Shown here piece after piece: positions 1 through 50,955 of a stretch of DNA of 64,000 nucleotides. A program made the position numbers and the translations under genes. The stretch covers positions 22,499-86,498 of the forward strand of contig JAITFE010000067.1 in assembly GCA_031281585.1 (NCBI GenBank). Direction: 5' to 3'. How positions within the stretch are numbered: position 1 is the stretch's first letter; every line of letters begins with the position of its first letter. The notes below the pieces were generated by a model. That model did not search any database, was not told the origin of the DNA, and saw only the letters and a list, made by a program, of their open reading frames with translations. Source of the stretch: Bifidobacteriaceae bacterium. GTDB taxonomy: Bacteria; Actinomycetota; Actinomycetes; Actinomycetales; WQXJ01.

Positions 1-662
1 TCGCCAAGCGGGCCGTCCGCCACCACCCGGCCGTGGCTCAGGACAATCCCGCGCTGGAGGTAGCGCTCGAAGGGCCCCAAGTCGTGGAGCACCACCAGGC
101 AGGTCAGGCCGGCGCGGGCCTCGAGCGCCGCCACCAGTTGCTCCGCTGAGGCCGAGTCGACTCCGGCCAGCGGTTCGTCCATGATCAAGAGCTCGGGATC
201 CCTTACCAGGGCGCGGGCCAGGAGCACTCGGTGCCGCTGGCCGCCCGAGAGCTGGGCGACGGCCCGCTTGGTGGCGTTTGGCAGTCCCACCGCGTTCAGC
301 GCGGCGGCGGCGCGGACCTTCGAGCCGCGAGGCGGCCAAGGTCGCCAACCCGTCAGCATCCCGGCCCGGACCACCTCCATTGGCGAGGTCGGAACGCCGG
401 ACCCGACCTGGGAGGACTGGGGCACATAGGCCAGCTTGCGCCAGGTCAGGGTGCGCCCCGGCGGCCTTCCGAGCACCTCGACTTGGCCGGCCGTGACGGG
501 GATCAACCCGAGCAGCGCCTTGACCAGGGTCGACTTGCCGGAGCCGTTCGCGCCCAGAATGCCGACTCGCTCGCCTTCTTGGACGGTCAGGCTGATGTCG
601 CTGAGGATGCGGTTGCCTCCCAGGTTGACGTCAGCGCCGATGGCTTTGGCGACGGCGGTCAA
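1..662 (-). CDS. metal-type ABC transporter ATP-binding protein (3' end outside window)
   Basis: Own translation of the minus strand gives Walker A GANGSGKST, signature LSGGQRHRV and Walker B LLIMDEP. A TTG at 662 overlaps the stop of the upstream SBP gene (TTGA). It is absent from the ORF track because it runs off the window. Confidence 0.8.
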   Translation of the reverse strand, partial: MTAVAKAIGADVNLGGNRILSDISLTVQEGERVGILGANGSGKSTLVKALLGLIPVTAGQVEVLGRPPGRTLTWRKLAYVPQSSQVGSGVPTSPMEVVRAGMLTGWRPWPPRGSKVRAAAALNAVGLPNATKRAVAQLSGGQRHRVLLARALVRDPELLIMDEPLAGVDSASAEQLVAALEARAGLTCLVVLHDLGPFERYLQRGIVLSHGRVVADGPLG

Positions 663-1651
663 GGCGCGACCAGTCCCGATTGGAGGGCTCCTAGGTTTGA
701 TTGCATGACTTGAAGGTAGTCGCCGGCGCTGTCGTTTTCGAGCGGGCTCAGCACAGCCGTGGTCATGCCGAGCCGGTCGGCTAGGACCTCGGCGGTCTTC
801 GGCGACGCCTGGTCTTCGAAGTAGATGGTCTTGACCTTGAGGCCTTCCAACTGTTTGGCGACCTCGGAAATGCGGGCGGGGCTCGGCTCCGCCTCCGGGT
901 CAACCCCGGAGATCGAGATCGCGTCCAGCCCGTAGCGGTTGGCGAAGTAGTTGAAAGCGGCATGGGTGGTGACCAGCGTGGCGCCCGCGAAGCCCGTGAG
1001 GCCTTCGGCCAGCTCCTCGTCAAGCGCCTTGAGCTGGTCGGCTGTGGCGTTGGCGCGCTCCTCGTACCCCTGGGCGCCTTCCGGGTCGGCCTGGGCCAAG
1101 GCTTCGCCGATGGGGCCGGTCAGTTCCGCCATCAGGGTCGGGTCCAGCCAGAAATGCGGATCGCCGTCCAGGATTTGGACCACGTCCGCCGCGTCCAAGA
1201 CCGCCTTGGGCGGGTTGGAGGTGATCGCCTCATCCACCGCTGCCTGGAAACCGCCCAGCGTGACCAGAAGGTCGGCCTGGCCAAGGGCCGAGACCTGGGA
1301 CAGCTCAAGCTCCGAGTCATGCGGCTCCGCGCCCTTTGGCGTGAGGCTCCCAACGCTAATCTGGTCCCCGGCGATCTGCTGGGTCAGCCACTGCAACGGG
1401 TAGAAGGACGCCATCACCTTGGGGCCGCTGGCCGCCTGCTGACTGTCGTCATCCCCGGACCGGCCAGACCCGGCCGGCGCGCCGCAGGCGCTTACCAGCA
1501 GGGTCAGCCCGACGGCGGTCGCCAGGACCCTCGGAAGGGGCCTTCTTGGGGCGCGCCCGGAGCTGCGCGCGGGGATGCGGGCGGACGGCGGGGTCTGGCG
1601 TTTCAACGCGCGAAGGCGTTTAAGAGTCTCTAACACGCAAATGATTATCAT
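659..1651 (-). CDS. metal ABC transporter substrate-binding lipoprotein (ZnuA/TroA family)
   Basis: 330-aa ORF with lipobox LLVSACG after a basic N-terminus and a DPHFWLDP motif typical of ZnuA/TroA SBPs. It is coupled to the downstream ATPase. The start is uncertain: ATG 1651 lies inside the palindromic operator, with alternatives GTG 1636 and TTG 1606. Confidence 0.8.
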
Positions 1652-1653
1652 TT
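1639..1653. promoter_or_regulatory. Fur-family (Zur-like) operator, perfect 7-1-7 palindrome AAATGATTATCATTT
   Basis: AT-rich perfect palindrome in the divergent znuA-like/glyQS intergenic region. It resembles actinobacterial Zur/Fur boxes (ATGAnnnTCAT core) and sits next to a Zn/Mn-type uptake operon. Confidence 0.55.
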
Positions 1654-1817
1654 TGTGGGGTGACGGAAGTCAAGTCGGGTGGCGGCGGGTCTCATTCTCT
1701 GGCGGTGCCAGACGGGCGAGATCGCCGGTTGGTCCGTCCAAACGCGAGCGAAAACGCGATCATGATCCGGCGGTCATCCCCGAGGGGCACGGCGGCCCTG
1801 GGCTAGGCTTGTGCGCC

Positions 1818-3206
1818 ATGGCAGCACCTTCCTCCACAATCGATTCGGTTATCTCACTGGCCAAACGGCGGGGCTTCGTTTTCCCGTGCGGGGAAATCTA
1901 CGGTGGGACCAGGTCGGCCTGGGATTACGGGCCGCTCGGGGTCGAATTGAAGGAGAACATCAAGCGGGCGTGGTGGCAGGCGATGGTGACCTCGCGGGAC
2001 GACGTGGTGGGGCTTGATTCGTCGGTGATCCTGCCGCGCCAAGTCTGGGAGGCCTCCGGCCATGTGGCTGTCTTCACCGACCCGCTGATCGAATGCACAA
2101 ACTGCCACAAGCGCTTCCGCGAGGACACGCTGCTGGAGGAGTTCGAGGAGCGCAAACACCACGCGCCTGAAGGCGGCCTGGCGGGACTGCCCTGCCCGAA
2201 CTGCGGGGTCAAGGGCGCCTGGACGGAGCCAAAGCAGTTCTCGGGGCTACTCCGCACATTCCTGGGCCCCGTGGAGGATGAGAAGGGACTGCACTACCTG
2301 CGCCCCGAAACCGCACAGGGAATCTTCGTCAACTTCGCCAACGTGCAGGCGGCGTCCCGCAAGAAGCCGCCATTCGGGATTGGGCAGGTGGGGAAGTCGT
2401 TCCGCAACGAGATCACTCCGGGCAACTTCATTTTCCGCACGCGCGAGTTCGAGCAGATGGAAATGGAGTTCTTCGTGGTGCCGGGGACGGACGAGGAATG
2501 GCACCAATACTGGATTGACGAGCGGACCCGTTGGTACACGGACCTTGGCATCAAACCGGAGAACTTGCGCCATTACGAGCACCCGCAGGAGAAGTTGTCG
2601 CACTACTCCAAGCGCACCGTCGACATTGAGTACCGGTTCCATTTCCAGGGGTCCGAATGGGGCGAGCTCGAGGGGATCGCCAACCGAACCGACTTCGACC
2701 TGACCACGCATTCGCAGCACTCCGGCCAGGACCTGTCGGTGTTTGACCAGGCCAGTGGCGAGCGCTACGTGCCCTATGTGATCGAGCCGGCGGCGGGTCT
2801 GTCGCGTTCCGTCATGGCTTTCCTGGTGGACGCCTACGCGGTGGACGAGGCGCCCAACACCAAAGGCGGCGTGGACCAGCGCACGGTCTTGCGCCTGGAC
2901 CCCCGGCTGGCGCCCGTCAAGGCCGCCGTGCTGCCGCTGTCCAGGGACGCCCGGCTCTCGCCGAAGGCCCGCGACCTGGCCGCCGAGTTGCGCAAGTACT
3001 GGAACATCGACTTTGACGACGCGGGCGCTATTGGCCGCCGCTACCGCCGGCAAGATGAGATCGGCACGCCGTTGTGCGTCACGATCGACTTCGATTCTTT
3101 GGACGATGACGCCGCCACCATCCGTCAGCGCGACTCCATGGCCCAGGAGCGGGTCGGCATAGGCCAAGTCAAGGAGCGCCTGGCGGGGCTGCTCGCGGGG
3201 GCATGA
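1818..3206 (+). CDS. glyQS: glycine--tRNA ligase (class II, dimeric type)
   Basis: ORF 1575..3206, with the start moved to in-frame ATG 1818 ([30 protein letters not shown]). The upstream 81 codons are R/G-rich and overlap the divergent promoter. Confidence 0.9.
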
Positions 3207-7913: not shown

Positions 7914-9830
7914 TTGGGCTCCGTGGCCGGGCGCATCACCAAAGCGGACGTTGAGGCCGTCAGGGCCGCCGCCCAGGTGGACCAGATAGTCGGCGAGAGG
8001 GTCAACCTCAAACGCGCCGGCGTGGGCTCGTTGAAGGGCCTGTGCCCGTTCCATGACGAGCGCACCGCCTCCTTCCACGTGCGCCCGCAGGTGGGCTTGT
8101 GGCATTGCTTCGGCTGCGGCGAGGGCGGCGACACGATCGCCTTCCTGATGAAGGCGGACGGCCTGAGCTTCACCGAGGCGATCGAATACTTGGCGGGGCG
8201 CTACGGCATCACCCTGCATTACGAGGAGACGGCCCCGGGTCGGGAACGCGACCCGTCGGAGCCGACCCGCGCCCGCCTTCTGGAGGCGAACCGCTTGGCC
8301 GCCGAGTATTACGCCGAGCGGCTGGGCACGCCGGAGGCCCGGCCCGCGCGGGACTTCTTGCGGTCCCGCAACTTTGACCGGGTGGTCGCGGACCGCTTCG
8401 GGGTCGGCTTCGCGCCTGGCGGCTGGGACAATCTGACTCGCCACCTGCGGGGACGCGGTTTCCAGGAGGCGGAATTGGCCGCGGCGGGCCTGACCTCGCC
8501 GGGCCGCCAGGGGCCGGTCGACCGGTTCCGGGAGCGGCTCGTCTGGCCGATCCGGGACTTGACCGGCGCCGTGGTGGGTTTTGGGGCCCGGCGGTTGTCC
8601 GATGCCGCCGAGTCGGCCAAGTATCTGAACACCCCGGAGACGCCGTTGTACCGCAAGTCGCAGCTTCTATACGGCGTTGACCTGGCCAAGAAGGCGATCG
8701 CGCGGCGCCGGCGCGTGGTGGTGGTCGAGGGGTACACAGACGTCATGGCGGCGCATCTGTCCGGGGTGGAGGAGGCGGTGGCGACCTGCGGGACCGCGTT
8801 CGGGAACGACCACATCAGGGTGGTCCGGCGCTTGCTGGGAGACGTCGGCTCGCCGGCGTCTGGCGTGCAGATGTCGGACGGGGCCTCGGTCGGCGGCAAA
8901 GTCGTGTTCACCTTCGACGGGGACGAGGCGGGCCAAAAGGCCGCCATGCGCGCGTTCGGCGAGGAGCAGCGGTTCTACGCGGGAACCTTCGTGGCGGTGG
9001 CGCCCCAGGGGCAGGACCCGTGCGAGTTGTGGGTCGGCCAGGGCGAACAAGCCGTGCGGGACCTAGTCGAGGGCGCCGAGCCGATGTTCCGCTGGGCGGT
9101 GCGCACGGCCCTGAAGTCAGTGGACCTGGAGACTGCGGAGGGCCGGGTGGCCGGGATGCGGATGGCGGCGCCCATGGTGGCGGGAATCCGGGACGACGCG
9201 CTCAGGCGCGACTACACCCGGCTGCTCGCGGGCTGGGTGGGCCAAGACGAGGCGCTGGTGCGGCGCGAGGTGGCTGGGGTGCGGTCCGGGGGAAGGGGGC
9301 GGACGGCATCGGCCAATGGCGGAGGCGGCCCGGGCGGACGGGGGGAGGGCTGGCGGGCGCCCGTCGACTCGGTGGGGCGGTCGGAGCACGACGCCCTGGC
9401 GGCCGTGCTGCAACTGCCCCGGCTGGTGCCGCCCCAATTTGACGACTTGGCGGGAGACGTTTTCCAGGTCCCCGAACTGCGGGCGGTGCATGACGCGATC
9501 CGGGCCGCGGGCGGGGTGGGGGCGGCCCAAGCCGAGGGCGCGGACCCGGCGGCGTGGATGGCGGAGGTTCGGGAACTGGCCGCGCCGCCGGTGGCCGGGG
9601 TGGTCGTGGCCCTCGCGGTGGAAGCGCTGCCGATCCGCGAGGGAGGCGAGGCCGACTACGTGGCGGGAGTGGTGAACGGGTTGCGGCAACTCGGGATCAC
9701 GCGGCGCCTGGGGGAGTTGCGCTCCCGGCTGGGCCGACAGGACGCGGCGGGGGACGCGGCGGGAAGGGCCGCGACGCTGATGGAAATCAATGAGTTGATG
9801 CGCAGCCGCGACGAACTGCGGCCGGACTGA
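7914..9830 (+). CDS. dnaG: DNA primase
   Basis: 638 aa with zinc finger CPFHDERTASFHV...CFGCGEGGD and a TOPRIM region VVVVEGYTDVMA...FDGDEAGQKAA. Confidence 0.92.
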   Translation: MGSVAGRITKADVEAVRAAAQVDQIVGERVNLKRAGVGSLKGLCPFHDERTASFHVRPQVGLWHCFGCGEGGDTIAFLMKADGLSFTEAIEYLAGRYGITLHYEETAPGRERDPSEPTRARLLEANRLAAEYYAERLGTPEARPARDFLRSRNFDRVVADRFGVGFAPGGWDNLTRHLRGRGFQEAELAAAGLTSPGRQGPVDRFRERLVWPIRDLTGAVVGFGARRLSDAAESAKYLNTPETPLYRKSQLLYGVDLAKKAIARRRRVVVVEGYTDVMAAHLSGVEEAVATCGTAFGNDHIRVVRRLLGDVGSPASGVQMSDGASVGGKVVFTFDGDEAGQKAAMRAFGEEQRFYAGTFVAVAPQGQDPCELWVGQGEQAVRDLVEGAEPMFRWAVRTALKSVDLETAEGRVAGMRMAAPMVAGIRDDALRRDYTRLLAGWVGQDEALVRREVAGVRSGGRGRTASANGGGGPGGRGEGWRAPVDSVGRSEHDALAAVLQLPRLVPPQFDDLAGDVFQVPELRAVHDAIRAAGGVGAAQAEGADPAAWMAEVRELAAPPVAGVVVALAVEALPIREGGEADYVAGVVNGLRQLGITRRLGELRSRLGRQDAAGDAAGRAATLMEINELMRSRDELRPD

Positions 9831-9832
9831 GG

Positions 9833-10144
9833 TCAGACCTCCTCGGGCGGGAACGCGCCGGGCTCCGGGGGCCGCTTGCCGTGCTGCTTCTCCCAACTCG
9901 ACAGCTGCTGTTCCAGGGCTTTCATCAGCTCGAACACCTGCGCCGGGGGAATGCGGACGCGGGCGCCCACCACGGCGGTCAAGACCACCTGGCCGGATTC
10001 CCGCCGGGGCGGTTCCAACAGGGCCGCGAAGTCCAGCACGAACGCATCGTTGGTGTGCCAAGCGCGGACGAAGTCGGCGTAGACGCCGGTTTCCAGTTCG
10101 GTCGGAAGCTTGATCTGGATGCGCTGCTCAGTTGCCATTGGCAA
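9833..10144 (-). CDS. DUF3467-like small conserved protein
   Basis: 103-aa ORF (MATEQRIQIKLPTELETGVYADFVRAWHTNDAFVLDFA). It is convergent with dnaG and has compact coding-like composition. Confidence 0.65.
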   Translation of the reverse strand: MPMATEQRIQIKLPTELETGVYADFVRAWHTNDAFVLDFAALLEPPRRESGQVVLTAVVGARVRIPPAQVFELMKALEQQLSSWEKQHGKRPPEPGAFPPEEV

Positions 10145-11885: not shown

Positions 11886-13124
11886 GTGGCGTCGCCCTAT
11901 GTTGGCGGGGTGACTAATCGCCCGGCTCGGGATGACCCGGCAACTCTCCGGTTCGCTAGTGCGGCTGTCCACGCCGGTAACGCCGTCGATGAGGGAACTG
12001 GCGCGATCCGTTCGCCGCTCATAATGGCCAACTCCTATGCGCTGCCGGAAGATCCTTCAGCGCTGTCATGGTCGGCTGCCGACGGGCTGCTTTACACTCG
12101 CAACTCGGGGGCGAACCAACTTGGGTTGCAGCGCAAAGTCGCCGCCTTGGAGGGCGGCGAGGACGCCGTGGTGTTGGCCTCGGGCGTTGCGGCGTTGCAC
12201 GCGGTCTTCTTCACTTTCCTGCGGACCGGCGATCATGTGGTGGTGGCGGATGTGACATATGAGGCCACGTGGCGGTTGTGGGCGGAGTTGTTGCCCCAGA
12301 AGTATCAGATTGACGTTGCGTTCGTGGACGCGGCCGATGAGGCGGCAATGGCCGGGGCGATTGGGCCGCGCACCAAGCTCGTCCATGTCGAGACGATTGG
12401 CAATCCCACCACCAAGGTCAGCGACATTGGCGCTGCGGTGCGCCTGGCGCACGCGGCGGGAGCGCTGGTCAGCGTTGATTCGACGTTCACGCCGCCGCCG
12501 TTGTACCGACCTTTGGACGACGGTGTCGATCTGGTGGTCCACTCATTGACCAAGTACATCAACGGACACGGCGACGCCATGGGCGGCGCGGTCGTCGGGC
12601 GGCGCGACTTGATCGAGCCGATCAAGGCCGACGCGATGGTGGACGCCGGTGGGGTGATCTCGCCTTTCAACGCTTGGCTGATCCAGCGGGGATCGGTCAC
12701 GCTACCGCTACGTCTAGCTCAGCAGCAGGCATCAGCGGCACGTGTGGCGGCGTTCCTAGAAGCCGACCCGCGCGTCGCCTACGTTTACTATCCGGGTCTT
12801 GCATCGCATCCCCAGCACGAGTTGGCGACCCGCCAGTTCGGTGGGCGCGGCCACGGCGCCATGATCGCCTTCGCGCTCGACGGGGACCGTGACACCCAGA
12901 ATCGGTTCGTCGCCAACCTTCGGCTTATCACATCAGCGGTGTCATTAGGCCACGACGAGTCGCTGATAGTCCACATCGGCGCAACCGGGCCACGCGTGAC
13001 CGCCTACTTCGAGCCGATTCGCCGCTTCGGCCAACTCCGCCTGTCAATCGGCCTAGAAGACCCCGAAGACCTGACCGCCGACCTGGCCGCAGCCCTCGAC
13101 CAAACCTTCGCCCCCGGCCGTTAG
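11886..13124 (+). CDS. PLP-dependent trans-sulfuration family enzyme (cystathionine gamma-synthase / methionine gamma-lyase-like)
   Basis: 412 aa with the PLP-lysine motif SLTKYINGHGD and family-wide similarity (AVHAG..., NPT..V.DI). GTG start is approximate. Confidence 0.85.
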   Translation: MASPYVGGVTNRPARDDPATLRFASAAVHAGNAVDEGTGAIRSPLIMANSYALPEDPSALSWSAADGLLYTRNSGANQLGLQRKVAALEGGEDAVVLASGVAALHAVFFTFLRTGDHVVVADVTYEATWRLWAELLPQKYQIDVAFVDAADEAAMAGAIGPRTKLVHVETIGNPTTKVSDIGAAVRLAHAAGALVSVDSTFTPPPLYRPLDDGVDLVVHSLTKYINGHGDAMGGAVVGRRDLIEPIKADAMVDAGGVISPFNAWLIQRGSVTLPLRLAQQQASAARVAAFLEADPRVAYVYYPGLASHPQHELATRQFGGRGHGAMIAFALDGDRDTQNRFVANLRLITSAVSLGHDESLIVHIGATGPRVTAYFEPIRRFGQLRLSIGLEDPEDLTADLAAALDQTFAPGR

Positions 13125-13510
13125 CGCGCGTCTGGGGCCTTGCCGGGCGGAACTACTCGGCTCGGCGCGTGGATGCCTGCCGGCCTGGGGGTCGATCTTG
13201 GCTTGGCGCCTGTGGGGACTGGGTGGTGGCGGACGGCGGTGTCATGACAGTGGCTGCGGTCTTTGACTGGCCAAATGACGGGCGCGACGCGCGGTTGGGG
13301 TATTCGAAGCTCGTGCCAGCCGCGCCGGCCGGGCAATGGTAAGAGTGCTGGCTCCGGGCTTGGCCGGTGGCGGTGGAGAACGACCAATTGCTCAAAGCGG
13401 TGGTGGGGCTCAGCGCACACATTGACGATCAACTCAGCGTTGGGCGGTTCGGTTTGCCGCCGGACGATTTGACAGCGGCTTCAGGGGCCTGGCACAGTTA
13501 TCCCCAACGC

Positions 13511-13525
13511 GAACGATTATCATTC
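13511..13525. promoter_or_regulatory. second Fur/Zur-like box GAACGATTATCATTC
   Basis: It shares the 10-nt core GATTATCATT with the box at 1639-1653 and is a near-palindrome (one mismatched pair). It lies in an otherwise GC-rich 930-bp non-annotated gap. Confidence 0.4.
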
Positions 13526-13565
13526 CTACCGGGGCGGCTTTCGTCCCCGCGACCGACGGGGCGAG

Positions 13566-13859
13566 GTGGACATGCGGTTGCTCAGACGTGGCGGCACCCG
13601 CCCGATGGCGCGCGCGGTCGCCCGCCGCTCAGACCCGGCAACCGGGTTCGCGGCCGGCGCGCACCTGCACGGCCGCAGCCACCTCGGGCGCGGCGGGGCG
13701 CCCCGGTGCGGCTGCGGGCCTGCCACCCCGGCAGGGGAAACCCGCCAAGACCCTTCGTGGGCTGTGCGCGCCGGCGCGCCCGTCCCGGCCCGCCAACGGC
13801 ACGCCTACGTCAGAAGCCACTTCATCTACTCCGACCGAATGGCCCACACGTTCCGCTAG
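13566..13859 (+). CDS. hypothetical small His/Cys-containing protein (low confidence)
   Basis: 97 codons with SD-like GAGGTGG just upstream. My hand count gives GC3 of about 87% in this frame against about 73% and 68% in the other two plus frames. The box at 13511-13525 ends 41 nt upstream. The product is R-rich, so the ORF may be spurious. Confidence 0.25.
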   Translation: MDMRLLRRGGTRPMARAVARRSDPATGFAAGAHLHGRSHLGRGGAPRCGCGPATPAGETRQDPSWAVRAGAPVPARQRHAYVRSHFIYSDRMAHTFR

Positions 13860-14051
13860 CCCAACACCCAGCCCGCGGCCAAGCCACGGGCGCCCGAATA
13901 CCGCAGCGGAACGAACCAACGGCCGCCAGCCTGCTCGCAGCACCGCCACCATCACGGCGACGCCCTGTATCGGGGGCGAATCGCCACGCACCGTGCCACA
14001 CGGCCACGGTCAATCCAAGAACTAGCAAGAAGGAAGAATCCAGAGAGCACC

Positions 14052-17000
14052 ATGACCCCAACCCGACTGCGGCGAGACCGCACCTCGACCATCCGAACCA
14101 CCTCGCTCCTTTCGATCTCGGCACTCGTCCTCGGAGGCATCTCCTTCCTTAGCAGCACACCGGCCATCGCCGACGAACCCGCTGCGGCGGTGGAGCGGGC
14201 GGTGGTGGATTCGGGTTGGGCGTTCCTGGATACGACGTTGGTCGATGGTGTGCCGACGCTTGGGCTGGTGCGCAGCGAGCACTCGACGACGACGAACGCG
14301 GCGGCGAACCCGGTTTCCTATGACCTGGACGAGGTCGTGGTGCGGATCGACGACTCGCACAAGACGGTGCTGCCGAGTGACGACACGCTGGCGGGGCAGA
14401 GCTGGCGGGAGTTCGGCCCAGCAGGCGCGGAGGTCTGGGAGACTTCGAGCACCACGGCGTTCAGCTCATCGTCCTTCCCCTCTAGCGACTTCCTGGTGGC
14501 CGGCTACAACGCACGAGGGATCCCGAAGTCCGCTTTGTCGTCGGGCAACGATCGGGTGACGATCGAGGTCGAGTCGTTCGCCGGGCCTGGCCGCTGGTAT
14601 TCCGGCGCCGGCTCTGCGACCGTCAACACGATGTCGACCAGTCGCCTGGACAGCTTCACCGAAGGCGGAACGGTGTCGGTTCCGGCGGCGAATGCCGGTC
14701 GACACTACTGGGACTTCACCGCGGCCGGGGTCTACTGCATCAGTTTCACCGCGACCGTGACGCTCGCCAGCGCGACCGAGCCGGTGACCAGCCAGCCCGG
14801 AACCCTGCGCATCATCGTCGGCGAGGTCGAGAACTGGGAAACCGCCGCCTGCGGCAGCGGCGAGGAGGAGTACGTTCCGCCGGAGATCGATCTCATGGAC
14901 CCGGCGAACAACTGGCTGCTTCCGAATGCGCACGCCGATGTCGCGGCCAAGCTCGAGAGCGACGGCTCGCTCGGTCTGCATCTTCGCAGCGGTCGTTGGT
15001 GGGAGTTCGCCAACACGATCGTATTCATGTCCGACGCGACCGAAGTCACAATTCCAGAGCCGACCGCGACCCGTGACTATACCTTCATCGCCCCAGCAGG
15101 GTCGACGGTCTGGCGACTGTCCAAGGCTCCGATCGACTATGCGACGTGGCTCGGGTTTTCGTCCGAGCACATCAGCGACGCCGACTTCGAGCGACTGCTG
15201 ACCTGGCAACTCTATGGCGTGGCGGGAATCGACGGTGGCGCCGCGCCCGGCGAGTTCGTGCTCGGTGCTGAAGAGTCCCTTGTCGCGGCCGGCGGTAGTC
15301 CCATTTTCTCGACCAGGCAAGGCATGCCGCAGGCGCTCCAGATGATCCCGGCCGCCTGGGCGCACAGGCACGCCTCATGGGACTTCACCGCGCCGGGGGT
15401 CTACTGCCTCGACATGGGGATGAGCGGCCGCCTGCCGGATGGCACGCCGGTGAGCGACCGCCAGGTGATGACAGTCGTCGTCGGCGGCGACAGCCTCAAT
15501 CCGAAGTCCATGCAGACCTGCATGCAGGCTGGCATCACCGCGACCGACACCCCGAGCGCCAACACCACGCTGGCCCTCGACACGGATGCCCCCATTGTGC
15601 TCCGACCCGAGAGCACGTCGCGAACCCTTACGACGATGCTGAGGCCGACCGTGAGCGACGGCACGCTGACGGTGGATCTCGTCGTCGAGGACCAGTTGAG
15701 CGGCGGAACCGCCTACGATCCGAACGATGTCGTGATCCCAGTCCGCGCGCCCGGAGATGCGGGTCAACAACTGGGGGGCTCACGCCCGTGGGACGGGTCT
15801 GCTGGTGATCGCTACTGGGCGCTCAACGGTGCCGTCGGTCGGGTTTCGCTCGGCTGGGATGCGACTAGGCTCCCGACGAGCGCCATTAGTGGCGACCTTG
15901 GCTGGACGATGACTGAGATCGCCGGCGGGGATCTCATCCTCAGCGACAACTACACGTCGGTGTCTCATCAGCCGGTCTTCAGCAGCCGTGCTGGATACGA
16001 ATCGTATTCCTACCCGATCTGGCCGGAGACACGGGTTGAGGATCCTTCGTGGGTCTTCAAGTCAACCGGGGTGTATTGCGTCGCCTTCGAGTGGTCAGGC
16101 ACTGCGGCCGGCGGCGCTTCGCTGGGGCCGGTGCAGAAGACGTTGACCTTCGCCGTGGGCGTCGATCCCGCCAAGATCATCCCGTGCTCGTGGGAGGGTG
16201 GCGGCGATCAGGGCGGCGGAGATGATGACGACCCCGACCCGGGCGAGGAGGTGCCGGACGATTGGTCGCAGCTCCCGCTGTCCGGGCGGCATGTGCTCGA
16301 CGGCGGTCACGTCGACATTCGTTCCGTGTTGACTGCGAGCGAGCACACCGTGGCGGTGCATGACGACAACACCCAGCCTGCGACGCTGCGCGCGGTCGGC
16401 GAGGTGACATTCTCGGTGCCGCCGGCGGCCGAGCAGACGGTCCCCAGCGCCGAGTTTGCGTTCCTGGGAGCAGAAGGCGACTCTGTGTGGACTCTGCCGC
16501 AGACCGCGCAGGCGGGCCTGGTTTGGCCGGGCTGGAACCTGGAACTCGGTTCGGGCTCGACGGCGACCGGTGTGCGGTGGGTCTTGGACGAGGTCACCGG
16601 TCCGGGTGGGTTCGCGCTCTATCAAAGCCTCAGCTTCGGTGATGTCTCGGTGCTGCTCGACAGCGACGATCCAGAGAACAGCGCGTTCGAGGTCAGTCAG
16701 CACGGGCACGGGAACTGGGCGTTCACTGCCGAGGGGGTCTACTGCGTCGACCTGACGGTATCCCCGGTTCCTGCCGCCGATGGCCTGGACCGAGCGGTCA
16801 CGCTGCTGTTCGGCGTCGGCGGCGTCGACCCGGAGCGGGTCACGCCGGAGCAGTGCGGTAAAACTCCCGCGCAGATCGTCGGGTCAGAGCCCACGCCGGA
16901 CCCGGCTGTGCCGGCCACACCAGGCCAGCCAGGTATCACCACAGACGGCTCCACCGTGTCGGTGACCTGGACGGCGCCCGATGACGGCGGTTCCGCGATC

Positions 17001-18212
17001 ACCGGCTACACGGTGGTGCTTGCCGGCGCGTTCGGGGTCCCGTTGGTGGTGGCGGCGGCCGCGGACGCGACGTCGGTTGTGTTCACTGAAGTGCCTGCCG
17101 GTTCTTGGACGGCGACGGTGGCGGCCGTGAACTCGGTTGGGTCCTCGGAGCCGTCGTCGGCGTCCAACGCGGTCACGGTCGCCTCGGCCCCAGAAGACCC
17201 AGCAGACCCGGACCCGGACCCTGGCCCTGAGCCGACCGTGCCGGCGGCGCCGGCGGCGCCTAGTGTGGTTGTGGACGGGGATGCGGTGACTGTTAGTTGG
17301 GTCGCTCCGGACGATGGGGGTTCCCCGTTGACCGGGTTCACTGTGAGCCTTCTGGGCGGAGGTAACCCGCTGGTGCGGGATGTGGGCGGGGATGCCACCT
17401 CGGCCCGGTTCGCCGGTGTTGATCCGGGCGCCTACCGTGCCACGGTGATCGCGGTCAACGCCGTCGGCGCGTCGGCGGCTTCCCCCGAATCAGCGCCGGT
17501 GACAATCGAACCCACCGCCTCAGAACCCGGTCCCGGCGAACCCGACCCAGGCGAAACAGACCCTGGTGACCCCGATCCCGGCGAACCCGACCCAGGCGAA
17601 ACAGACCCTGGTGACCCTGGTCCCGGTGAGCCTGATCCCGGCGAGCCCGGTCCCGGTGACCTTGACCCCGGTGAGCCCGGTCCCGGCGAGCGCGATCCTG
17701 GCGACCCTGACCCTGGTGACCCTGACCCTGGTGACCCTGACCCTGGTGACCCTGATCCGGAGGTGGCTCCGGTGCCTGAGGGCGAGTTGACGGATGCGTC
17801 GCGCGGTGGGGTGGACGTGCCGGACGCGGCGGCGCCTGGTGCCCAGATTGTGGTCACGGTGCCCGGGCGCGCAGGCCAGCGGGTGCGGGTGTGGCTGCAT
17901 TCGGCCCCGGTTCTGTTGGGCACGGTCACGTTGGACGCGGATGGCCGGGTGGTGGTGACCATCCCGGCTGGCACGCCGCTAGGCGACCACCGGGTCGTGG
18001 TGCAGGCGCTGGACGGCTCCCTGGTCGGGTGGGACGGCATCGTGATCCGCGCGGCCTCCCATCCGGCCGACCCGGACCCGGGCGACAAGGCGCTTCCCGT
18101 GACGGGCGCGGACGTGAGCTGGCCGCTGATCGGGGCGGTCGGGCTGTTGCTGCTCGGAGCGTTCGCGCGGATCAGGGCGCGCGAACACGGCGCCCGCCCG
18201 GCGAACGCCTGA
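14052..18212 (+). CDS. LPXTG cell-wall-anchored surface protein with four ~215-aa repeat domains, two FN3 domains and a (D/E)PG low-complexity tract
   Basis: Signal peptide (SLLSISALVLGGISFLSSTPAIADEP). The motif W-x-F-x-x-x-GVYC occurs four times (HYWDFTAAGVYC, ASWDFTAPGVYC, PSWVFKSTGVYC, GNWAFTAEGVYC). There are two FN3-like units (VSVTWTAPDDGGSAITGYTV, VTVSWVAPDDGGSPLTGFTV). The C-terminus has LPVTG, a TM helix and a basic tail. Confidence 0.9.
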   Translation: MTPTRLRRDRTSTIRTTSLLSISALVLGGISFLSSTPAIADEPAAAVERAVVDSGWAFLDTTLVDGVPTLGLVRSEHSTTTNAAANPVSYDLDEVVVRIDDSHKTVLPSDDTLAGQSWREFGPAGAEVWETSSTTAFSSSSFPSSDFLVAGYNARGIPKSALSSGNDRVTIEVESFAGPGRWYSGAGSATVNTMSTSRLDSFTEGGTVSVPAANAGRHYWDFTAAGVYCISFTATVTLASATEPVTSQPGTLRIIVGEVENWETAACGSGEEEYVPPEIDLMDPANNWLLPNAHADVAAKLESDGSLGLHLRSGRWWEFANTIVFMSDATEVTIPEPTATRDYTFIAPAGSTVWRLSKAPIDYATWLGFSSEHISDADFERLLTWQLYGVAGIDGGAAPGEFVLGAEESLVAAGGSPIFSTRQGMPQALQMIPAAWAHRHASWDFTAPGVYCLDMGMSGRLPDGTPVSDRQVMTVVVGGDSLNPKSMQTCMQAGITATDTPSANTTLALDTDAPIVLRPESTSRTLTTMLRPTVSDGTLTVDLVVEDQLSGGTAYDPNDVVIPVRAPGDAGQQLGGSRPWDGSAGDRYWALNGAVGRVSLGWDATRLPTSAISGDLGWTMTEIAGGDLILSDNYTSVSHQPVFSSRAGYESYSYPIWPETRVEDPSWVFKSTGVYCVAFEWSGTAAGGASLGPVQKTLTFAVGVDPAKIIPCSWEGGGDQGGGDDDDPDPGEEVPDDWSQLPLSGRHVLDGGHVDIRSVLTASEHTVAVHDDNTQPATLRAVGEVTFSVPPAAEQTVPSAEFAFLGAEGDSVWTLPQTAQAGLVWPGWNLELGSGSTATGVRWVLDEVTGPGGFALYQSLSFGDVSVLLDSDDPENSAFEVSQHGHGNWAFTAEGVYCVDLTVSPVPAADGLDRAVTLLFGVGGVDPERVTPEQCGKTPAQIVGSEPTPDPAVPATPGQPGITTDGSTVSVTWTAPDDGGSAITGYTVVLAGAFGVPLVVAAAADATSVVFTEVPAGSWTATVAAVNSVGSSEPSSASNAVTVASAPEDPADPDPDPGPEPTVPAAPAAPSVVVDGDAVTVSWVAPDDGGSPLTGFTVSLLGGGNPLVRDVGGDATSARFAGVDPGAYRATVIAVNAVGASAASPESAPVTIEPTASEPGPGEPDPGETDPGDPDPGEPDPGETDPGDPGPGEPDPGEPGPGDLDPGEPGPGERDPGDPDPGDPDPGDPDPGDPDPEVAPVPEGELTDASRGGVDVPDAAAPGAQIVVTVPGRAGQRVRVWLHSAPVLLGTVTLDADGRVVVTIPAGTPLGDHRVVVQALDGSLVGWDGIVIRAASHPADPDPGDKALPVTGADVSWPLIGAVGLLLLGAFARIRAREHGARPANA
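17524..17760 (+). repeat. in-frame (D/E)PG-encoding tandem repeat inside the surface-protein gene
   Basis: 9/18-bp units encoding PGEPDPGETDPGDPD... It includes a 45-bp tandem duplication with 40 identical nt (cccggcgaacccgacccaggcgaaacagaccctggtgacc, twice) and four consecutive gaccctggtgaccct units. Confidence 0.9.
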
Positions 18213-18362: not shown

Positions 18363-18632
18363 TTGCGACGCCTCGGCCGCGCGGTCGAATGCCACCGGGC
18401 GCAAGGCGCCGTCACAAACGCCACCGCAGCCGTCTCCAACGCCTTGGACGCCGTCCTCGCGGCCAGCGACACCGGGATCACCGAGGACGCCTCTCGGGTT
18501 GAGAACGCCGCCAGCGACCTAGCCGCCGAACTGGCGGCCACCGCCCTGGGCCGGGCCGGGGGTCAGGCGGTCGGGTCGGTGACCGCGCCCAGGGAGAGCG
18601 GAACCCCCGTCTCCAAATCCACTATCCCGTAG
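18363..18632 (+). CDS. hypothetical small protein (very low confidence)
   Basis: 89 codons with a TTG start, high GC3 by eye and an Ala-rich helical-looking sequence. It overlaps the convergent serpin 3' end by 70 nt, which argues against it. Confidence 0.2.
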   Translation: MRRLGRAVECHRAQGAVTNATAAVSNALDAVLAASDTGITEDASRVENAASDLAAELAATALGRAGGQAVGSVTAPRESGTPVSKSTIP

Positions 18633-19804
18633 ACGAACGGGCGGTCAAACTCGACCGTGAACGGGTTGGCGGCCAAGTGGGCCGATTGAAGCATCGCGAC
18701 CAGGGTGGCGGCGGCCGCTTCGGTGCCGGTCTCCTCCACCTTGATGACACCCTGGTGGAAAGCCTTGTCGACGTGCCCCGCGTTGGGCGCTATCCCGCTG
18801 AAGTCGGCGTTTTCGCCGAAGGCGTCGACCAGGCCCAACGACTGGAGAATCGGGATCAAGTCGACCGGGCCGCTGTCCGCCTCCCACTTCGGCAGCGTGA
18901 TCGTCAACTCGGTGCTGGGCACGCTCTGGGCAAGCCACGCCCCCAACTGCGCGCCGTTCCAGTCCACTGAGCCAAGGCCGCCGCTTGGCATCACCGCGAC
19001 CATCGCCAGGCTCGACGCGGCATAGGGAAGAACCGCGCCCAACGTGCCATCCGGCAGATTGATGTAGGCGGCCCCGTCCGTGGCCTCAAGCACCGCGTGC
19101 ATCAACTGAGCCTGGACCACCTCGCCGGACGGCAAAGTGAAATCGCCCTCGGCCGTCAAGGGCTCGTCGAATGGCTGCGCCCAAGACGCCTTCAGATAGA
19201 GCGCGTTGACCAACGCGATGGTTGTCGCTGGGTCCAATTGGTCCACCAGCCTCGGGATCAGCTCGTTGGTCTTGTCGGAAACCCAAGCATTAATCAGGTC
19301 CACGGTGTCCGGGTCGGCGAACGACACGTCTTTGACCTCCGCGGCGTAGTTTTCACGGGCATTCGCCTCAAACGAAGGGTCCGCCGAAAGCCGATCAGGG
19401 TCGAACCAAAGCGAGTCGGCCACCGTAAGCAACGGGAGGACCGGTCCCCAATCGTCGCCCTCCCGTGTCCCGTTGTACCCGGACCAGGCCGCGATCAGTT
19501 CGGCCGCGCGGGCGTTCGCGCCCGCCCGGTCCATGCCGAGGACCTCGGCGAATTGGCGCTCGGTCTCGCCGCGCGCGCCTTCGCCCGTCATGGCCAGGGC
19601 GAAGAAAAAGGTTAACTCCTGGCAGGTGGTCAAAAGGTAACCGGCAAGCGTCCGCCAATCCGATCGCCTGGGGCCTGCCCATCCGATCCGCCGCGCCGCC
19701 CGGAACGCGCCACAGATCCGGCAGAAGACCCGGCCGTGCCCCGGACGCCGCGCAGATCTCTGGCGAAAGACCCGGCCGTGCCGTTTGGGTGCCCTCGGCG
19801 TCAA
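18563..19804 (-). CDS. serpin family protein, N-terminal region atypical or possibly damaged
   Basis: Reactive-centre-loop hinge KVEETGTEAAAATLV, FDRPFVYGIVD, and ALAMTGEGARGETERQF (helix B). The region where NxxFSPxSI should precede ALAM is shortened (ELTFFFALAM). The first ~50 codons are R-rich with no signal peptide. Confidence 0.75.
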   Translation of the reverse strand: MTPRAPKRHGRVFRQRSARRPGHGRVFCRICGAFRAARRIGWAGPRRSDWRTLAGYLLTTCQELTFFFALAMTGEGARGETERQFAEVLGMDRAGANARAAELIAAWSGYNGTREGDDWGPVLPLLTVADSLWFDPDRLSADPSFEANARENYAAEVKDVSFADPDTVDLINAWVSDKTNELIPRLVDQLDPATTIALVNALYLKASWAQPFDEPLTAEGDFTLPSGEVVQAQLMHAVLEATDGAAYINLPDGTLGAVLPYAASSLAMVAVMPSGGLGSVDWNGAQLGAWLAQSVPSTELTITLPKWEADSGPVDLIPILQSLGLVDAFGENADFSGIAPNAGHVDKAFHQGVIKVEETGTEAAAATLVAMLQSAHLAANPFTVEFDRPFVYGIVDLETGVPLSLGAVTDPTA

Positions 19805-46857: not shown

Positions 46858-49800
46858 AGGGCAAAGAAGGGCGCCGCACTCACGGCGACGCATCGGAAAG
46901 GCGGCTGAGGACGAGTTTGAATTCCTCCTGGCCTCAATGAAGGGCACCGCTCAAGAGCAGCGCAATCAGACGGCACCGCCGAGTTTGGCGGCTACACGAT
47001 CAGGCCTCAATGAAGGGTGCCGCTGATGAGCGGCCCAATAAGGCGAGCTGGCCCCCGTCCACGGCGCGCACGCGGAGCCTCAAGGAAGGGCGCAATGTGA
47101 AGTCCGCCCGAATGACTCCGAAGCGTTCATGGCCTCAATGAAGGGAGCCGCTGATGAGCGGCGCAATCCCGCCGGCGGACGCTGCCCAGGCCGGCGCTGG
47201 AATGCCTCAATGAAGGGCGCCGCTGAAGAGCGGCGCAATTTGGCCTTGCTGGAGAAAGTCGGTTTGCCAGACCATGCCTCAATGAAGGGCGCCGCTGAAG
47301 AGCGGCGCAATCCTTCTCACCATGACGGCTCCGGCGTCGTGAACTCACCTCAATGAAGGGCGCCGCTGAAGAGCGGCGCAATGCCACAAACCGAAATTCG
47401 TTCGTTTGTTCGAACAGCCTCTTTGAGGGGTGCCGCTGAAGAGCGGCGCAATACCGTCAATCCCCCCGACACGCCGTTGGTCCACCGCGCCTCAATGAAG
47501 GGCGCCGCTGCAGAGCGGCGCAATCAGGTCAACCCGACGGTTCAGAGGCCGCTCTACGTGCCTCAATGAAGGGCGCCGCTGAAGAGCGGCGCAATTTCGC
47601 GCCGTCAAAGAAGGGATCGGCAATGGTCGCGCCTCAATGAAGGGCGCCGCTGCAGAGCGGCGCAATGACGCGTTCGCCGGATCCGCCCGAAGGTTGCTCG
47701 GGCCTCAATGAAGGGCGCCGCTGAAGAGCGGCGCAATTTCCCTTCAGTCTGCCACAAGGATCTCTTCTCATGCAGCCTCAATGAAGGGCGCCGCTGAAGA
47801 GCGGCGCAATTTGGTGTCCCGAATGTCACGGAACCGATCTGCATGCGCCTCAATGAAGGGCACCGCTGAAGAGCGGCGCAATCTGGGCGTTCCGGAGGGT
47901 CAACGACGAGTCAAGCAGCCTCAATGAAGGGCGCCGCTGAAGAGCGGCGCAATCCGTCCACGGGCACCGTCAGGGAGCCGTCGGACTCGTTGCCTCAATG
48001 AAGGGCGCCGCTGAAGAGCGGCGCAATCGGGCGCTGGACGGCGGATCGGATAAAGGAGATGCGCCTCAATGAAGGGCGCCGCTGAAGAGCGGCGCAATCT
48101 CTTCCTCCCACACCACGTTGGCGAGCGCCTGCTCTTCGCCTCAATGAAGGGCGCCGCTGAAGAGCGGCGCAATAGCACCTGCGCCAGGCCCACGGCATGA
48201 CCGTCGAAGAGCCTCAATGAAGGGCGCCGCTGAAGAGCGGCGCAATGGGGCTGCTGGAATTGTCTGGTGGTGGACTAGCGGCCTCAATGAAGGGCGCCGC
48301 TGAAGAGCGGCGCAATTGCCGCTTCCCCCGGCGATGGCGGAAATCCTGCGGAGGCCTCAACGAAGGGAGCCGCTGAAGAGCGGCGCAATACGAATCCGGA
48401 CGCGTTGGACGATTGGGAGTGTTAGCCTCAATGAAGGGCGCCGCTGAAGAGCGGCGCAATCAATTTGAAGGCGATGTGTCAGGGCTGCCACCTGTTGCCT
48501 CAATGAAGGGCGCCGCTGAAGAGCGGCGCAATCCGGGTGAAGTGGTCGCCCAACCCATGCGGGTCCTGGCCTCAATGAAGGGCGCCGCTGAAGAGCGGCG
48601 CAATGGCGTGGCGGGGAGGCAACACCCTCACGGCCCTCAGGCCTCAATGAAGGGCGCCGCTGAAGAGCGGCGCAATAATGCTCGATGAGTTGTTCCCCGA
48701 TGAACTGCGTGCCTCAATGAAGGGCGCCGCTGAAGAGCGGCGCAATCGCTCCGACATCGACGGAGCCCTGGACGTCCGCGAGCCTCAATGAAGGGCGCCG
48801 CTGAAGAGCGGCGCAATGCGTCAGCGTCTCGCGGAGTCCGGGCGGAAGCCTGACGCCTCAATGAAGGGCGCCGCTGAAGAGCGGCGCAATCCGAGACGCG
48901 AACCGCAGAACCCGCTCCGTCAGAATGCCTCAATGAAGGGCGCCGCTGAAGAGCGGCGCAATACCTCTTCCTGCGCCAGCCGCAGGTCGGCGTTCGCGCC
49001 TCAATGAAGGGCGCCGCTGAAGAGCGGCGCAATGCCCGCAACGCCCGGTAGAACGCCTCCGTCGTGGTGCCTCAATGAAGGGCGCCGCTGAAGAGCGGCG
49101 CAATGCGGGTTTGGGGTTGACGCAGCCCCAGGCACGGGTGCCTCAATGAAGGGCGCCGCTGAAGAGCGGCGCAATTTGGAAGCTTTGGCATGGGTTCGTG
49201 CTAAGGAGATTGGCCTCAATGAAGGGCGCCGCTGAAGAGCGGCGCAATTTCCGGATGAAGGACGGGGCGTCGAAGGTGCGCCTGCCTCAATGAAGGGCGC
49301 CGCTGAAGAGCGGCGCAATTTGGGGGGCGCGGCTGGGGGCCGTTTCATGCGGTCGGGCCTCAATGAAGGGCGCCGCTGAAGAGCGGCGCAATAGGTCGCC
49401 GCGTCGGCGGTCGCGGCGGCGGTCGAGCCTCAATGAAGGGCGCCGCTGAAGAGCGGCGCAATCTCAGCACCGTTGACCACAGAACACTGAACTGCGAGCC
49501 TCAATGAAGGGCGCCGCTGAAGAGCGGCGCAATCCGGCCGACACGTACCGTGCGGCCGGGCTCCAAGCCTCAATGAAGGGCGCCGCTGAAGAGCGGCGCA
49601 ATTCGAGAAGAACTCGCCTATCGCCCCCCAGTTCTGGAGCCTCAATGAAGGGCGCCGCTGAAGAGCGGCGCAATGGCGACGTTCGGGAGTTACGCGGGCG
49701 CGGGGCTCACGCCTCAATGAAGGGCGCCGCTGAAGAGCGGCGCAATAACCTGCGGAGGCGCATTGAAACTGCCCTTTCCAGGCCTCAATGAAGGGCGCCG

Positions 49801-50955
49801 CTGAAGAGCGGCGCAATGTCCCAGCTCAGAGACGTGCTGGGACCGGTTTCCCGCCTCAATGAAGGGCGCCGCTGAAGAGCGGCGCAATGAGGCCGGAATC
49901 ACCGAGGTTCGTGCGCAGACCCGCCTCAATGAAGGGCGCCGCTGAAGAGCGGCGCCATCCACTCAAGTTTGACCGGCGCCGAGATGAGGCCCGGCCTCAA
50001 TGAAGGGCGCCGCTGAAGAGCGGCGCAATCCGTGGCGGTCCGGGCTTGCTGGAGCCGCTCCAGGTGCCTCAATGAAGGGCGCCGCTGAAGAGCGGCGCAA
50101 TACGATCACCGCCAGGCGGTTCGGAAAACACTGGACGCCTCAATGAAGGGCGCCGCTGAAGAGCGGCGCAATAACTCGATCCCCTCTCGCGACGACTACG
50201 GGGTCCTGCCTCAATGAAGGGCGCCGCTGAAGAGCGGCGCAATCTTGCCCTCGACCAGGGCCTCCGCCAGTTCGTTGTCGCCTCAATGAAGGGCGCCGCT
50301 GAAGAGCGGCGCAATCCCGACTGACGGGGCACGACGATAACAATTTCTCTGCCTCAATGAAGGGCGCCGCTGAAGAGCGGCGCAATATCGCCACCCGCGC
50401 CCCACAGGCGGGAGATTTGGGGCCTCAATGAAGGGCGCCGCTGAAGAGCGGCGCAATTCGAGCGGGTGAGGCCCGGCGGCGTGACGGGGGGAGCCTCAAT
50501 GAAGGGCGCCGCTGAAGAGCGGCGCAATGGCGCTGGGTTCATCCATGGTGACGACTGTATCATCGCCTCAATGAAGGGCGCCGCTGAAGAGCGGCGCAAT
50601 CCGCGACCAGCGCTTTTAACCGGACCGAAGCCCGAGCCTCAATGAAGGGCGCCGCTGAAGAGCGGCGCAATACGGCACCTTTGATCCCCTCACCCTAGTG
50701 AGTTGCCTCAATGAAGGGCGCCGCTGAAGAGCGGCGCAATCAATCCCCACCATCAGAACATTTATTCCTTGCCCTTGCCTCAATGAAGGGCGCCGCTGAA
50801 GAGCGGCGCAATGTGTTCCCGCCACGGGTGTCCCGCCGGGATGAGCGCGCCTCAATGAAGGGCGCCGCTGAAGAGCGGCGCAATTCTAGGGAGGTGTGGC
50901 CGACGTTTTCCCAGTCCGCGCCTCAATGAAGGGCGCCGCTGAAGAGCGGCGCAAT
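46858..50955 (-). CRISPR. CRISPR array, about 57 repeats of 36 nt (plus one more decayed unit), spacers 33-39 nt
   Basis: Plus-strand repeat is gcctcaatgaagggcgccgctgaagagcggcgcaat. Transcribed (minus) sense is ATTGCGCCGCTCTTCAGCGGCGCCCTTCATTGAGGC, with stem GCGCCGCT/AGCGGCGC. I located every unit from 46931 to 50920 at 69-75-bp spacing. Decay is seen at 47417, 47077, 46931 and 46858, and an 18-nt spacer remnant lies at 47114-47131. Confidence 0.97.

Follow-up and report, generated by a model that had tools for sequence, protein, structure and literature searches.

A 64,000-nt stretch of contig JAITFE010000067.1 (positions 22,499 to 86,498; assembly GCA_031281585.1), hereafter the window, probably carries two arms of a regulon under the control of Zur, a repressor that senses zinc. 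The window has a GC content of 68% and belongs to a 103-kb contig of a metagenome-assembled genome (MAG) labelled "Bifidobacteriaceae bacterium". In the reading that we favor, to which we assign a probability of roughly 80%, one arm is a znuACB(-zur) operon controlled via Box 1 (1639-1653), and the other is an operon of a small Cys/His-rich gene and a gene for a giant sortase-anchored surface protein, controlled via Box 2 (13511-13525). Judged from its sequence context, Box 2 is very probably a real binding site for Zur. Its predicted immediate target is the small gene at 13572-13859, with which the giant gene is most likely co-transcribed. An earlier note on this DNA had placed both boxes correctly and had proposed that a shared metal-responsive operator links the giant protein to the metal-uptake operon 12 kb away. 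The shared operator is supported by an independent Zur matrix, which picks both boxes, and by retention of Box 2 in L008, the closest relative and another locus with the small gene. Two parts of the proposal need revision. Co-regulation of the giant gene stands, with the small gene and not the giant gene as the immediate target, and the link to the uptake operon stands as a shared regulator and not as a partnership with a dedicated anchored-repeat transporter (the binding protein of the uptake operon scores 95.9 bits against a TIGR03772 cut-off of 350).

Box 1 (AAATGATTATCATTT) fills positions 7-21 of the 21-bp Zur motif. It had been described as a perfect palindrome, and its 7-1-7 arms are indeed perfect, with self-complementarity at 14 of 15 positions; Box 2 (GAACGATTATCATTC) is self-complementary at 12 of 15. 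The 10-nt core noticed earlier, GATTATCATT, is common to both boxes and has no other exact copy in the 64-kb window. With up to one mismatch allowed, three copies were observed against 0.37 expected, a number reached in none of 100 shuffles. The likeness of the boxes extends further than this core, and in that respect had been understated: their 21-mers share 16 of 21 positions, among them an ACGC that stands directly 5′ of both boxes.

The earlier note had suggested a scan with an actinobacterial Zur/Fur matrix. We used a symmetrised weight matrix trained on 65 Zur sites of actinobacteria, taken from the supplementary data of Schroeder et al. 2010 (PMC2823685), the lowest of which scores 20.5 bits, with 300 dinucleotide-preserving shuffles of the 64-kb window as background; no shuffle reached 20.5 bits. 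The best match in the window was 1633-1653 (ACACGCAAATGATTATCATTT), which contains Box 1 and, at 21.6 bits, lies above the training minimum and inside the training range. The region containing Box 2, 13505-13525 (CAACGCGAACGATTATCATTC), was third with 11.4 bits. Matches of at least 11.45 bits occurred in the shuffles at a mean of 0.24 per 64 kb, i.e., about 0.003 in the 927-bp gap upstream of the giant gene. Box 2 is a statistically unusual yet weak match to the matrix.

Related loci were collected with an alignment of the small protein. A scan of one genome per species yielded 12 loci, in two Bifidobacteriaceae MAGs (two loci each), Microbacterium marinilacus, M. testaceum, two Microbacterium MAGs, a Cellulomonas MAG, Arthrobacter gyeryongensis and two Propionibacteriaceae MAGs. 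A metagenome scan added four loci, and locus L005 was found via a homologue of the giant protein. Upstream DNA is present in 16 loci besides the window (11 genome loci, four metagenome loci and L005), or 17 with the window. A Zur-matrix match occurs upstream of the small open reading frame (ORF) in all 16, with scores of 10.7-36.2 bits, and this operon box is the top match of its locus everywhere except in L009 (M. marinilacus), where it ranked third. Boxes of the Bifidobacteriaceae-like lineage scored 10.7-14.9 bits, those of the other lineages 18-36 bits. The distance from the box end to the start codon, preceded by a Shine-Dalgarno sequence, is 16-64 nt in the 13 loci with an assigned start.

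A predicted promoter accompanies these boxes. Of the 17 loci, the window included, 16 have a perfect TTGACA upstream of the box, and the exception, L005, has TTCACA. Among the first 13 loci, 12 carry the perfect hexamer at a distance of 24-38 nt upstream of the box, and all four metagenome loci also have it upstream. In loci read in detail, a -10 element of the form nAnnnT (CATAAT, CAATAT, CAAAAT, CACAGT and others) follows 17-18 nt after the -35 element. In the window, the Box 2 operator starts 6 nt after TTGACA-18-CACAGT, a block conserved in L008, and transcription of the operon would begin near 13505. Since the operator is directly downstream of this conserved promoter, it is predicted to cover the transcription start region. 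Both operators overlap a core promoter or start, Box 1 with the -10 element inside it and Box 2 at its predicted start. No RNA family was detected in the gap by Rfam at either threshold.

Conservation at orthologous loci between diverged flanks was found both for Box 2 (in L008, and as a box in all 16 other loci) and for the znuA box (in the znuA relatives L002 and L003). In L008 the match is GAGTGCGAACGATTATCATTC: the 15-mer of Box 2 is 100% conserved, and a block of 17 nt is identical (17/17) at the same position. When the upstream regions of the window and L008 were aligned, the only conserved islands were the TTGACA block, the Box 2 block and the Shine-Dalgarno/ATG region. In addition, 18 of the 21 positions of the Box 2 operator agree with the znuA operator of L002; in the flanks, 16 of 60 positions are shared on each side, which is background. 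Such a match without flank similarity points to an independently maintained operator. The form GCGAAyGATTATCATT was found at five sites in three or four genomes, and these sequences suggest that Zur of the window's lineage accepts a GC-shifted left half-site.

Two other views of Box 2 were considered and rejected. A translocated copy of the znuA promoter is contradicted by flanks at background identity, by the lack of TTGAC at the matching place and by a minus-strand frame that stops after eight codons. The 15-nt palindrome as the true dyad was also dropped: its own centre does not fit the Zur consensus, and the 21-bp register, offset by 3 bp, does.

The gap had been thought to hold no convincing gene. 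By family conservation and coding pattern, however, the ORF next to Box 2, ORF97, is a genuine gene, and its family has no name so far. The end of Box 2 lies 40 nt from GTG 13566 and 527 nt from the giant ATG 14052, in line with the distances reported before, and 46 nt from ATG 13572. The last is better supported as the start of the small gene than GTG 13566, and the source's own gene call is also a protein of 95 aa from ATG 13572. The GC content at third codon positions was computed as 0.867, confirming the earlier count of about 87%. A profile-free HMMER search with ORF97 against 1.84 billion representative proteins returned 29 matches at E<=1e-3 (best non-self E = 6.5e-11), about 25 of which are proteins of 70-122 aa aligned almost end to end. 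The family signature is H31-x-H33-x-R-G-H-L, P-R-C46-G-C48-G-P and W-x-P, followed near the C-terminus by Q-H-x-G-F-V-R-x-H-F-I-Y-S-D-R-M. In 13 loci, codon positions 1, 2 and 3 of the small gene differ at rates of 0.37, 0.43 and 0.53, identical residue pairs use different codons in 43% of cases, and amino-acid identity is 0.44 in frame versus 0.30-0.33 in shifted frames. The L008 protein is 55% identical to ORF97, with the Shine-Dalgarno sequence and ATG conserved.

Family conservation together with the codon-position pattern rules out that ORF97 is a spurious high-GC ORF or a purely RNA-level element. A zinc-independent ribosomal-protein paralogue was also rejected, with no NCBIfam or Pfam match. 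Members of the small-protein family had no match in Pfam, NCBIfam or solved structures (PDB), all public names that we looked up were "hypothetical protein", and a literature search found nothing on the family or its motifs. AlphaFold2 gave no usable model (predicted local distance difference test 60, predicted template modelling score 0.18). The small protein has no signal peptide, and its N-terminus is basic and variable. We propose a cytoplasmic, zinc-related role for this protein, with its H-x-H…C-x-C ligand set.

The giant protein exceeds the curated cut-offs of three families: NF038134 (284 vs 55 bits), TIGR03773 (264.5 vs 190.3) and TIGR03769 (113.8 vs 30.9). The TIGR03769 score comes from four repeats in an NCBIfam model search, and the family had been correctly named in the earlier note. 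Its N-terminus is signal-peptide-like, and its C-terminus consists of LPVTG, a hydrophobic stretch and RIRAREHGAR. For ZnuE/F/G, CmrA and CmrA2 of C. diphtheriae, an HxD and an HxH that enclose about 150 residues were described (PMC12445094). At least one copy of this arrangement was looked for in the giant protein, and it was found in domains 2 and 4, in both of which the HxH stands just before the W-x-F-x3-G-V-Y-C motif. Domains 1 (14184-14756) and 3 (15594-16097) have neither HxD nor HxH and keep the W-x-F-x3-G-V-Y-C core. An alternation of intact and degenerate domains was also observed in homologues, e.g., P0131. As two of the four domains carry the HxD/HxH ligand set, the giant protein probably captures or holds zinc at the cell surface.

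Relatives of the giant protein were few. When its full length served as query, a homology search gave just nine proteins, the low-complexity linker having probably swamped the candidate list, and no relative came from scanning genomes and metagenomes with it. The closest orthologue, P0130, is 57% identical and located at a contig edge, hence without upstream DNA. No literature was found on TIGR03769.

The other arm begins at Box 1. The earlier note had put this box over the promoter and start of a ZnuA-type gene, which agrees with a -10 element GATAAT and a leaderless start inside the operator. A promoter scan placed the -10 element inside Box 1 and scored 10 matches out of 12, with 0.0 such promoters expected in shuffles. 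The encoded lipoprotein (659-1651) scored below the NCBIfam equivalog cut-offs for AztC (135 bits), ZnuA and TIGR03772 (95.9 vs 350.45). Its top solved relatives are the zinc binders AdcA, Lmb, AdcAII and YcdH, with manganese binders scoring lower. It contains TTHAAF, which we take to include the third metal ligand His, a position presumably occupied by Glu in manganese binders. From these sequence relationships, we assign it as a zinc-type binding protein, i.e., the housekeeping ZnuA.

Relatives of znuA were retrieved whose products are 74-77% identical, that of L002 being 77% identical. The best Zur-matrix match of each lies at znuA and is AAATGATAATCGTTCGCGTGT (16.0 bits) for L002 and AAATGATAATCATTCCCATGA (26.2 bits) for L003; read on the same strand, the window box is AAATGATAATCATTTGCGTGT. 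Upstream of znuA, L002 and L003 share the box and the TTGAC -35 element with the window, and the remaining flank is at background identity. Codon 6 of each of the three znuA ORFs compared is GTG, GTG or ATG and lies 7 nt past the -10 element, a position that fits a leaderless znuA mRNA. Leaderless mRNAs have been mapped for Zur-regulated znu genes of C. glutamicum.

Several minor observations concern these znuA loci. The second-best Zur-matrix match of the window (2624-2644, 13.3 bits) is inside the glyS coding sequence, and a comparable match (14.0 bits) occurs at 2237-2257 of L002, also within glyS. These matches are probably a by-product of conserved coding sequence and not operators. In L003 the glyS synteny of the window is not retained; the features noted there, at 293-1564 and 9295-9854, are a MazE/PemK toxin-antitoxin pair that closely precedes znuA and, about 8.4 kb upstream, a reverse transcriptase of the group II intron type.

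The boxes could in principle be bound by another Fur-family regulator (iron Fur or a PerR, Mur or Nur type), so that the operon would answer another metal or oxidative stress. The classical Fur consensus is GATAATGATAATCATTATC, and the central 13 nt of Box 1 on the complementary strand (AATGATAATCATT) equal its centre. In L002, znuA-znuC-znuB is followed by a Fur-family gene (12461-12880), whose product is below every NCBIfam cut-off and has its best matches in Fur and PerR models; any Fur paralogues of the source genome would lie outside the window. Against solved structures, however, the L002 protein scored 122 bits with S. coelicolor Zur (3mwm) and 113 bits with M. tuberculosis FurB (2o03), about twice its scores with Fur (<=62 bits), PerR (53) or Nur (38). 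The same motif stands at a zinc-type znuA, and the equivalent operon box in other genera is a canonical actinobacterial Zur site of 26-36 bits. In addition, L009 has Zur boxes of 36.6 and 34.0 bits between a divergent ZigA-like COG0523 GTPase and a flavin oxidoreductase. This pair is of the same type as cg0794/cg0795 of C. glutamicum, which are validated Zur targets, so these boxes serve as a positive control. Zur rather than Fur is thus the regulator supported by the sequences, and control by another family member appears quite improbable. The zur gene itself most likely lies at the end of the znuACB operon, just past the left edge of the window.

Several points weigh against the two-arm Zur regulon. 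Box 2, at 11.4 bits, falls short of the 20.5-bit training minimum, and its left half has CGC in place of the consensus TGA. All four operon boxes of the Bifidobacteriaceae-like lineage are weak (10.7-14.9 bits), and repression may therefore be partial or require lineage-specific recognition. The -10 element CACAGT is also weak, and a sigma-70 scanner called neither a promoter nor a terminator in the gap upstream of the giant gene. The zur gene is outside the window, its presence being deduced from L002, and the choice-of-anchor M domain is equated with the HxD/HxH domain of C. diphtheriae by motif position and spacing. Box 2 might even be a chance AT-rich stretch or a -10-like element whose resemblance to Box 1 has no regulatory meaning: its score is under that of every training site, and intergenic DNA of high-GC genomes is enriched in AT-rich promoter elements beyond what a shuffle model captures. 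A chance origin is nevertheless highly improbable given the 0.003 matches expected in the gap, the identical 17-nt block between the diverged flanks of L008, the match to the L002 znuA operator and a Zur box at the same place in every other locus with upstream DNA. A further view accepts Box 2 as an operator of the small gene only and gives the giant gene a zinc-independent promoter of its own within the 192 nt that separate the genes (13860-14051). This spacer has room for a promoter. It also contains the ribosome-binding region (14017-14031), which with 10 of 15 has the same AT content as Box 2, so that Box 2 is not, as had been claimed, the sole AT-rich island of the gap. Co-transcription of the small and giant genes is itself a prediction. 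Such a promoter is unlikely in view of the lack of a terminator-like site between the two genes, a spacer of just 73 nt in L008, the fact that, where the downstream sequence is long enough, the giant gene follows the small gene on the same strand in most loci, and the finding in C. diphtheriae that transcription from the cmrA promoter reads into downstream genes.

Under the two-arm Zur regulon, zinc-loaded Zur would occupy both operators when zinc is sufficient, and zinc-dependent binding at Box 2 would rely on GATTATCA. In zinc shortage, Zur would leave both operators, and the ZnuABC importer and the two-gene operon would be expressed. The derepressed operon would yield a 95-aa cytoplasmic Cys/His-rich protein and a 1386-aa wall-anchored protein. 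The wall protein may act in capture or retention of zinc at the surface, and the small protein in a zinc-related role.

Zur- and zinc-repressed wall proteins of C. diphtheriae were reportedly described by Smith et al. in 2009, as cited in later papers. The cmrA, cmrA2 and znuF/G genes of this organism are Zur- and zinc-repressed, their products are wall-localised, and HxD/HxH is implicated in zinc binding (PMC6711530, PMC12445094). The window system resembles cmrA/znuF/znuG in that its product is a large protein anchored by sortase, in which HxD and HxH flank several domains of about 150 aa each. It further resembles cmrA in having a Zur-type box at the promoter, a gene away from the znu transporter and a mixture of intact and degenerate domains. 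However, for cmrA the published site table puts the Zur site at -1 and lists no small upstream gene (PMC2823685), and in the window a conserved 95-aa Cys/His gene separates operator and surface-protein gene. The window also differs in coming from an uncultured Bifidobacteriaceae-like lineage with a weak, GC-shifted box, and zinc binding and regulation are here predictions from sequence.

The actinobacterial Zur operator is a 21-bp 10-1-10 palindrome, TAATGAAAATCATTTTCATTA (Schroeder et al. 2010, PMC2823685), and that of S. coelicolor has a 7-1-7 core, TGAAAATGATTTTCA. The right half and centre of both window boxes fit the consensus (…GATTATCATT), and the boxes overlap a core promoter or start, Box 1 being on a leaderless start as in C. 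glutamicum. In contrast to the consensus, the left half in the window's lineage is (A/C)CGC(A/G)AA in place of ATGAAAA, a deviation that makes the sites strongly asymmetric and puts Box 2 below all 65 reference sites. The 15-nt palindrome of the boxes is also offset by 3 bp from the 21-bp dyad. With the znuACB-zur operons of Streptomyces coelicolor and Leifsonia xyli, L002 shares the order znuA-znuC-znuB-zur and a Zur box at znuA. In the window, the first two genes are visible next to glyS, with zur outside and its presence deduced from L002.

Like TIGR03773/TIGR03769/NF038134 proteins, the giant protein passes all three curated cut-offs. Unlike in TIGR03773-type systems, no anchored-repeat transporter adjoins it, and the one metal transporter of the window has a plain ZnuA. 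No TIGR03770-03772 component was found beside the giant gene, whose neighbors are a pyridoxal phosphate (PLP) enzyme, a serpin, a PMT_2-like protein and an EamA transporter. Streptococcal polyhistidine-triad (Pht) proteins with AdcAII offer an analogy only, one also drawn by the C. diphtheriae authors: Pht proteins are zinc-regulated surface proteins with repeated His zinc sites and are thought to feed a zinc ATP-binding cassette (ABC) importer. Pht proteins differ in that fold and motif (HxxHxH) are unrelated, the regulator is AdcR and not Zur, and anchoring does not involve sortase.

Zur control of CmrA-type wall proteins is already known, with experimental demonstration only in Corynebacterium diphtheriae, and has been predicted in other Corynebacterium species and P. 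acnes (PMC2823685). What appears to be new, judging from the loci compared, is its extension to several other actinobacterial groups with a tightly conserved promoter-operator layout, a small Cys/His protein family encoded by the first gene of the predicted operon, directly after the putative operator in every locus examined, and a degenerate operator form with one strong half in the window's lineage. The small protein is a concrete new candidate component for research on zinc homeostasis, and cultivable species (Microbacterium testaceum NS220, M. marinilacus YM11-607 and Arthrobacter gyeryongensis JCM 18514) carry the module. Drifted Zur sites of this lineage, with one strong half, would be rejected by generic matrices, which matters for regulon prediction in MAGs. 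A more far-reaching proposal, plausible enough to state though we lean against it, is that the small protein is a dedicated zinc-starvation factor (sensor, chaperone or regulator) needed for production or function of the choice-of-anchor M zinc-capture protein, and that Zur box, small gene and giant gene form a unit for zinc acquisition that has so far gone unrecognised and is common across Micrococcales, Propionibacteriales and Bifidobacteriaceae-like lineages. Coordinates of the features of both arms are given in Table 1.

Table 1. Features of the two predicted Zur-controlled arms in the window
Feature	Position	Strand	Details
znuC-like ABC ATPase, 5′ part	1..658	-	Walker A GANGSGKST; directly after znuA; truncated by left window edge
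ZnuA/AztC-like zinc-type substrate-binding lipoprotein	659..1651	-	Lipobox LLVSAC; likely true start GTG 1636
Putative Zur operator of znuA, 21-bp register	1633..1653	.	Contains Box 1 (1639-1653); overlaps -10 and leaderless start
Predicted znuA promoter	1644..1673	-	-35 TTGACT (1673-1668), 18-nt spacer, -10 GATAAT (1649-1644)
Predicted operon promoter	13469..13498	+	-35 TTGACA 13469-13474, 18-nt spacer, -10 CACAGT 13493-13498
Candidate Zur operator, 21-bp register	13505..13525	.	Contains Box 2 (13511-13525); Zur matrix 11.4 bits
Small Cys/His-rich protein, 95 aa	13572..13859	+	Shine-Dalgarno GAGG 13563-13566; ATG start
Giant sortase-anchored surface protein, 1386 aa	14052..18212	+	Signal peptide, four choice-of-anchor M/TIGR03769 domains, two fibronectin type III (FN3) domains, Pro/Asp/Gly linker, LPVTG 18093-18107
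Domain 2 putative metal-ligand pair	14931..15371	+	HAD294 (14931-14939), HRH438 (15363-15371); 144 aa apart
Domain 4 putative metal-ligand pair	16308..16709	+	HVD753 (16308-16316), HGH884 (16701-16709); 131 aa apart

Downstream of the small gene, on the same strand, other loci usually encode a large TIGR03773/NF038134/TIGR03769 protein and often also a protein with a single domain and a length of about 190-220 aa; all large proteins tested were above the TIGR03773, NF038134 and TIGR03769 cut-offs. Single-domain proteins of about 175-220 aa were observed in L005 (895-1419), L009 (8408-9067), L010 (8398-8976) and L013 (8428-9015), with weak choice-of-anchor M/TIGR03769 matches and, in the L005 copy, a signal-peptide-like N-terminus. 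Their gene is located between the small and giant genes or, in L009 and L010, whose flanks showed no giant gene, takes its place; neither the window nor L008 has it. About 6 kb upstream of its module, L009 encodes one more choice-of-anchor M protein with a single domain; the ranges noted for L009, 4372-6857 and 1065-1904, cover this gene and the divergent GTPase/oxidoreductase pair. Two copies of the small gene were present in MAG Gsp477_bin183 (L008 and L017) and in MAG Pcl387_bin30 (L015 and L016). The full module of small gene and large surface protein occurs in L008, L015 and L017, which recalls cmrA and cmrA2 of C. diphtheriae. In L005, a Zur-like box of 19.6 bits (173-193) lies about 20 nt upstream of a gene for an HU/IHF-like DNA-binding protein (216-494), just ahead of the second box, which precedes the operon of small ORF and giant protein.

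Around Box 1, the znuA-like and ABC ATPase genes are on the minus strand and glyS is on the plus strand. The interval between Box 1 and Box 2 contains dusB, an FtsX/ABC pair, dgt, dnaG, two tRNA genes and the PLP enzyme, which belongs to the cystathionine gamma-synthase/methionine gamma-lyase family. On the 3′ side of the giant gene, the serpin, PMT_2-like membrane protein and EamA transporter genes are convergent on the opposite strand; the serpin gene (18563-19804, minus strand, 223.7 bits) directly follows the giant gene. Farther along, the region of 47276-50956 and 51447-59878 has a clustered regularly interspaced short palindromic repeat (CRISPR) array with a 36-nt repeat, GCCTCAATGAAGGGCGCCGCTGAAGAGCGGCGCAAT, in roughly 50 units of about 71 nt. 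Adjoining cas genes on the minus strand encode a Cas4-Cas1 fusion, a Cas3-like helicase and a GSU0053-family protein, and the GC content of this CRISPR/cas region (0.63-0.65) is below that of the rest of the window.

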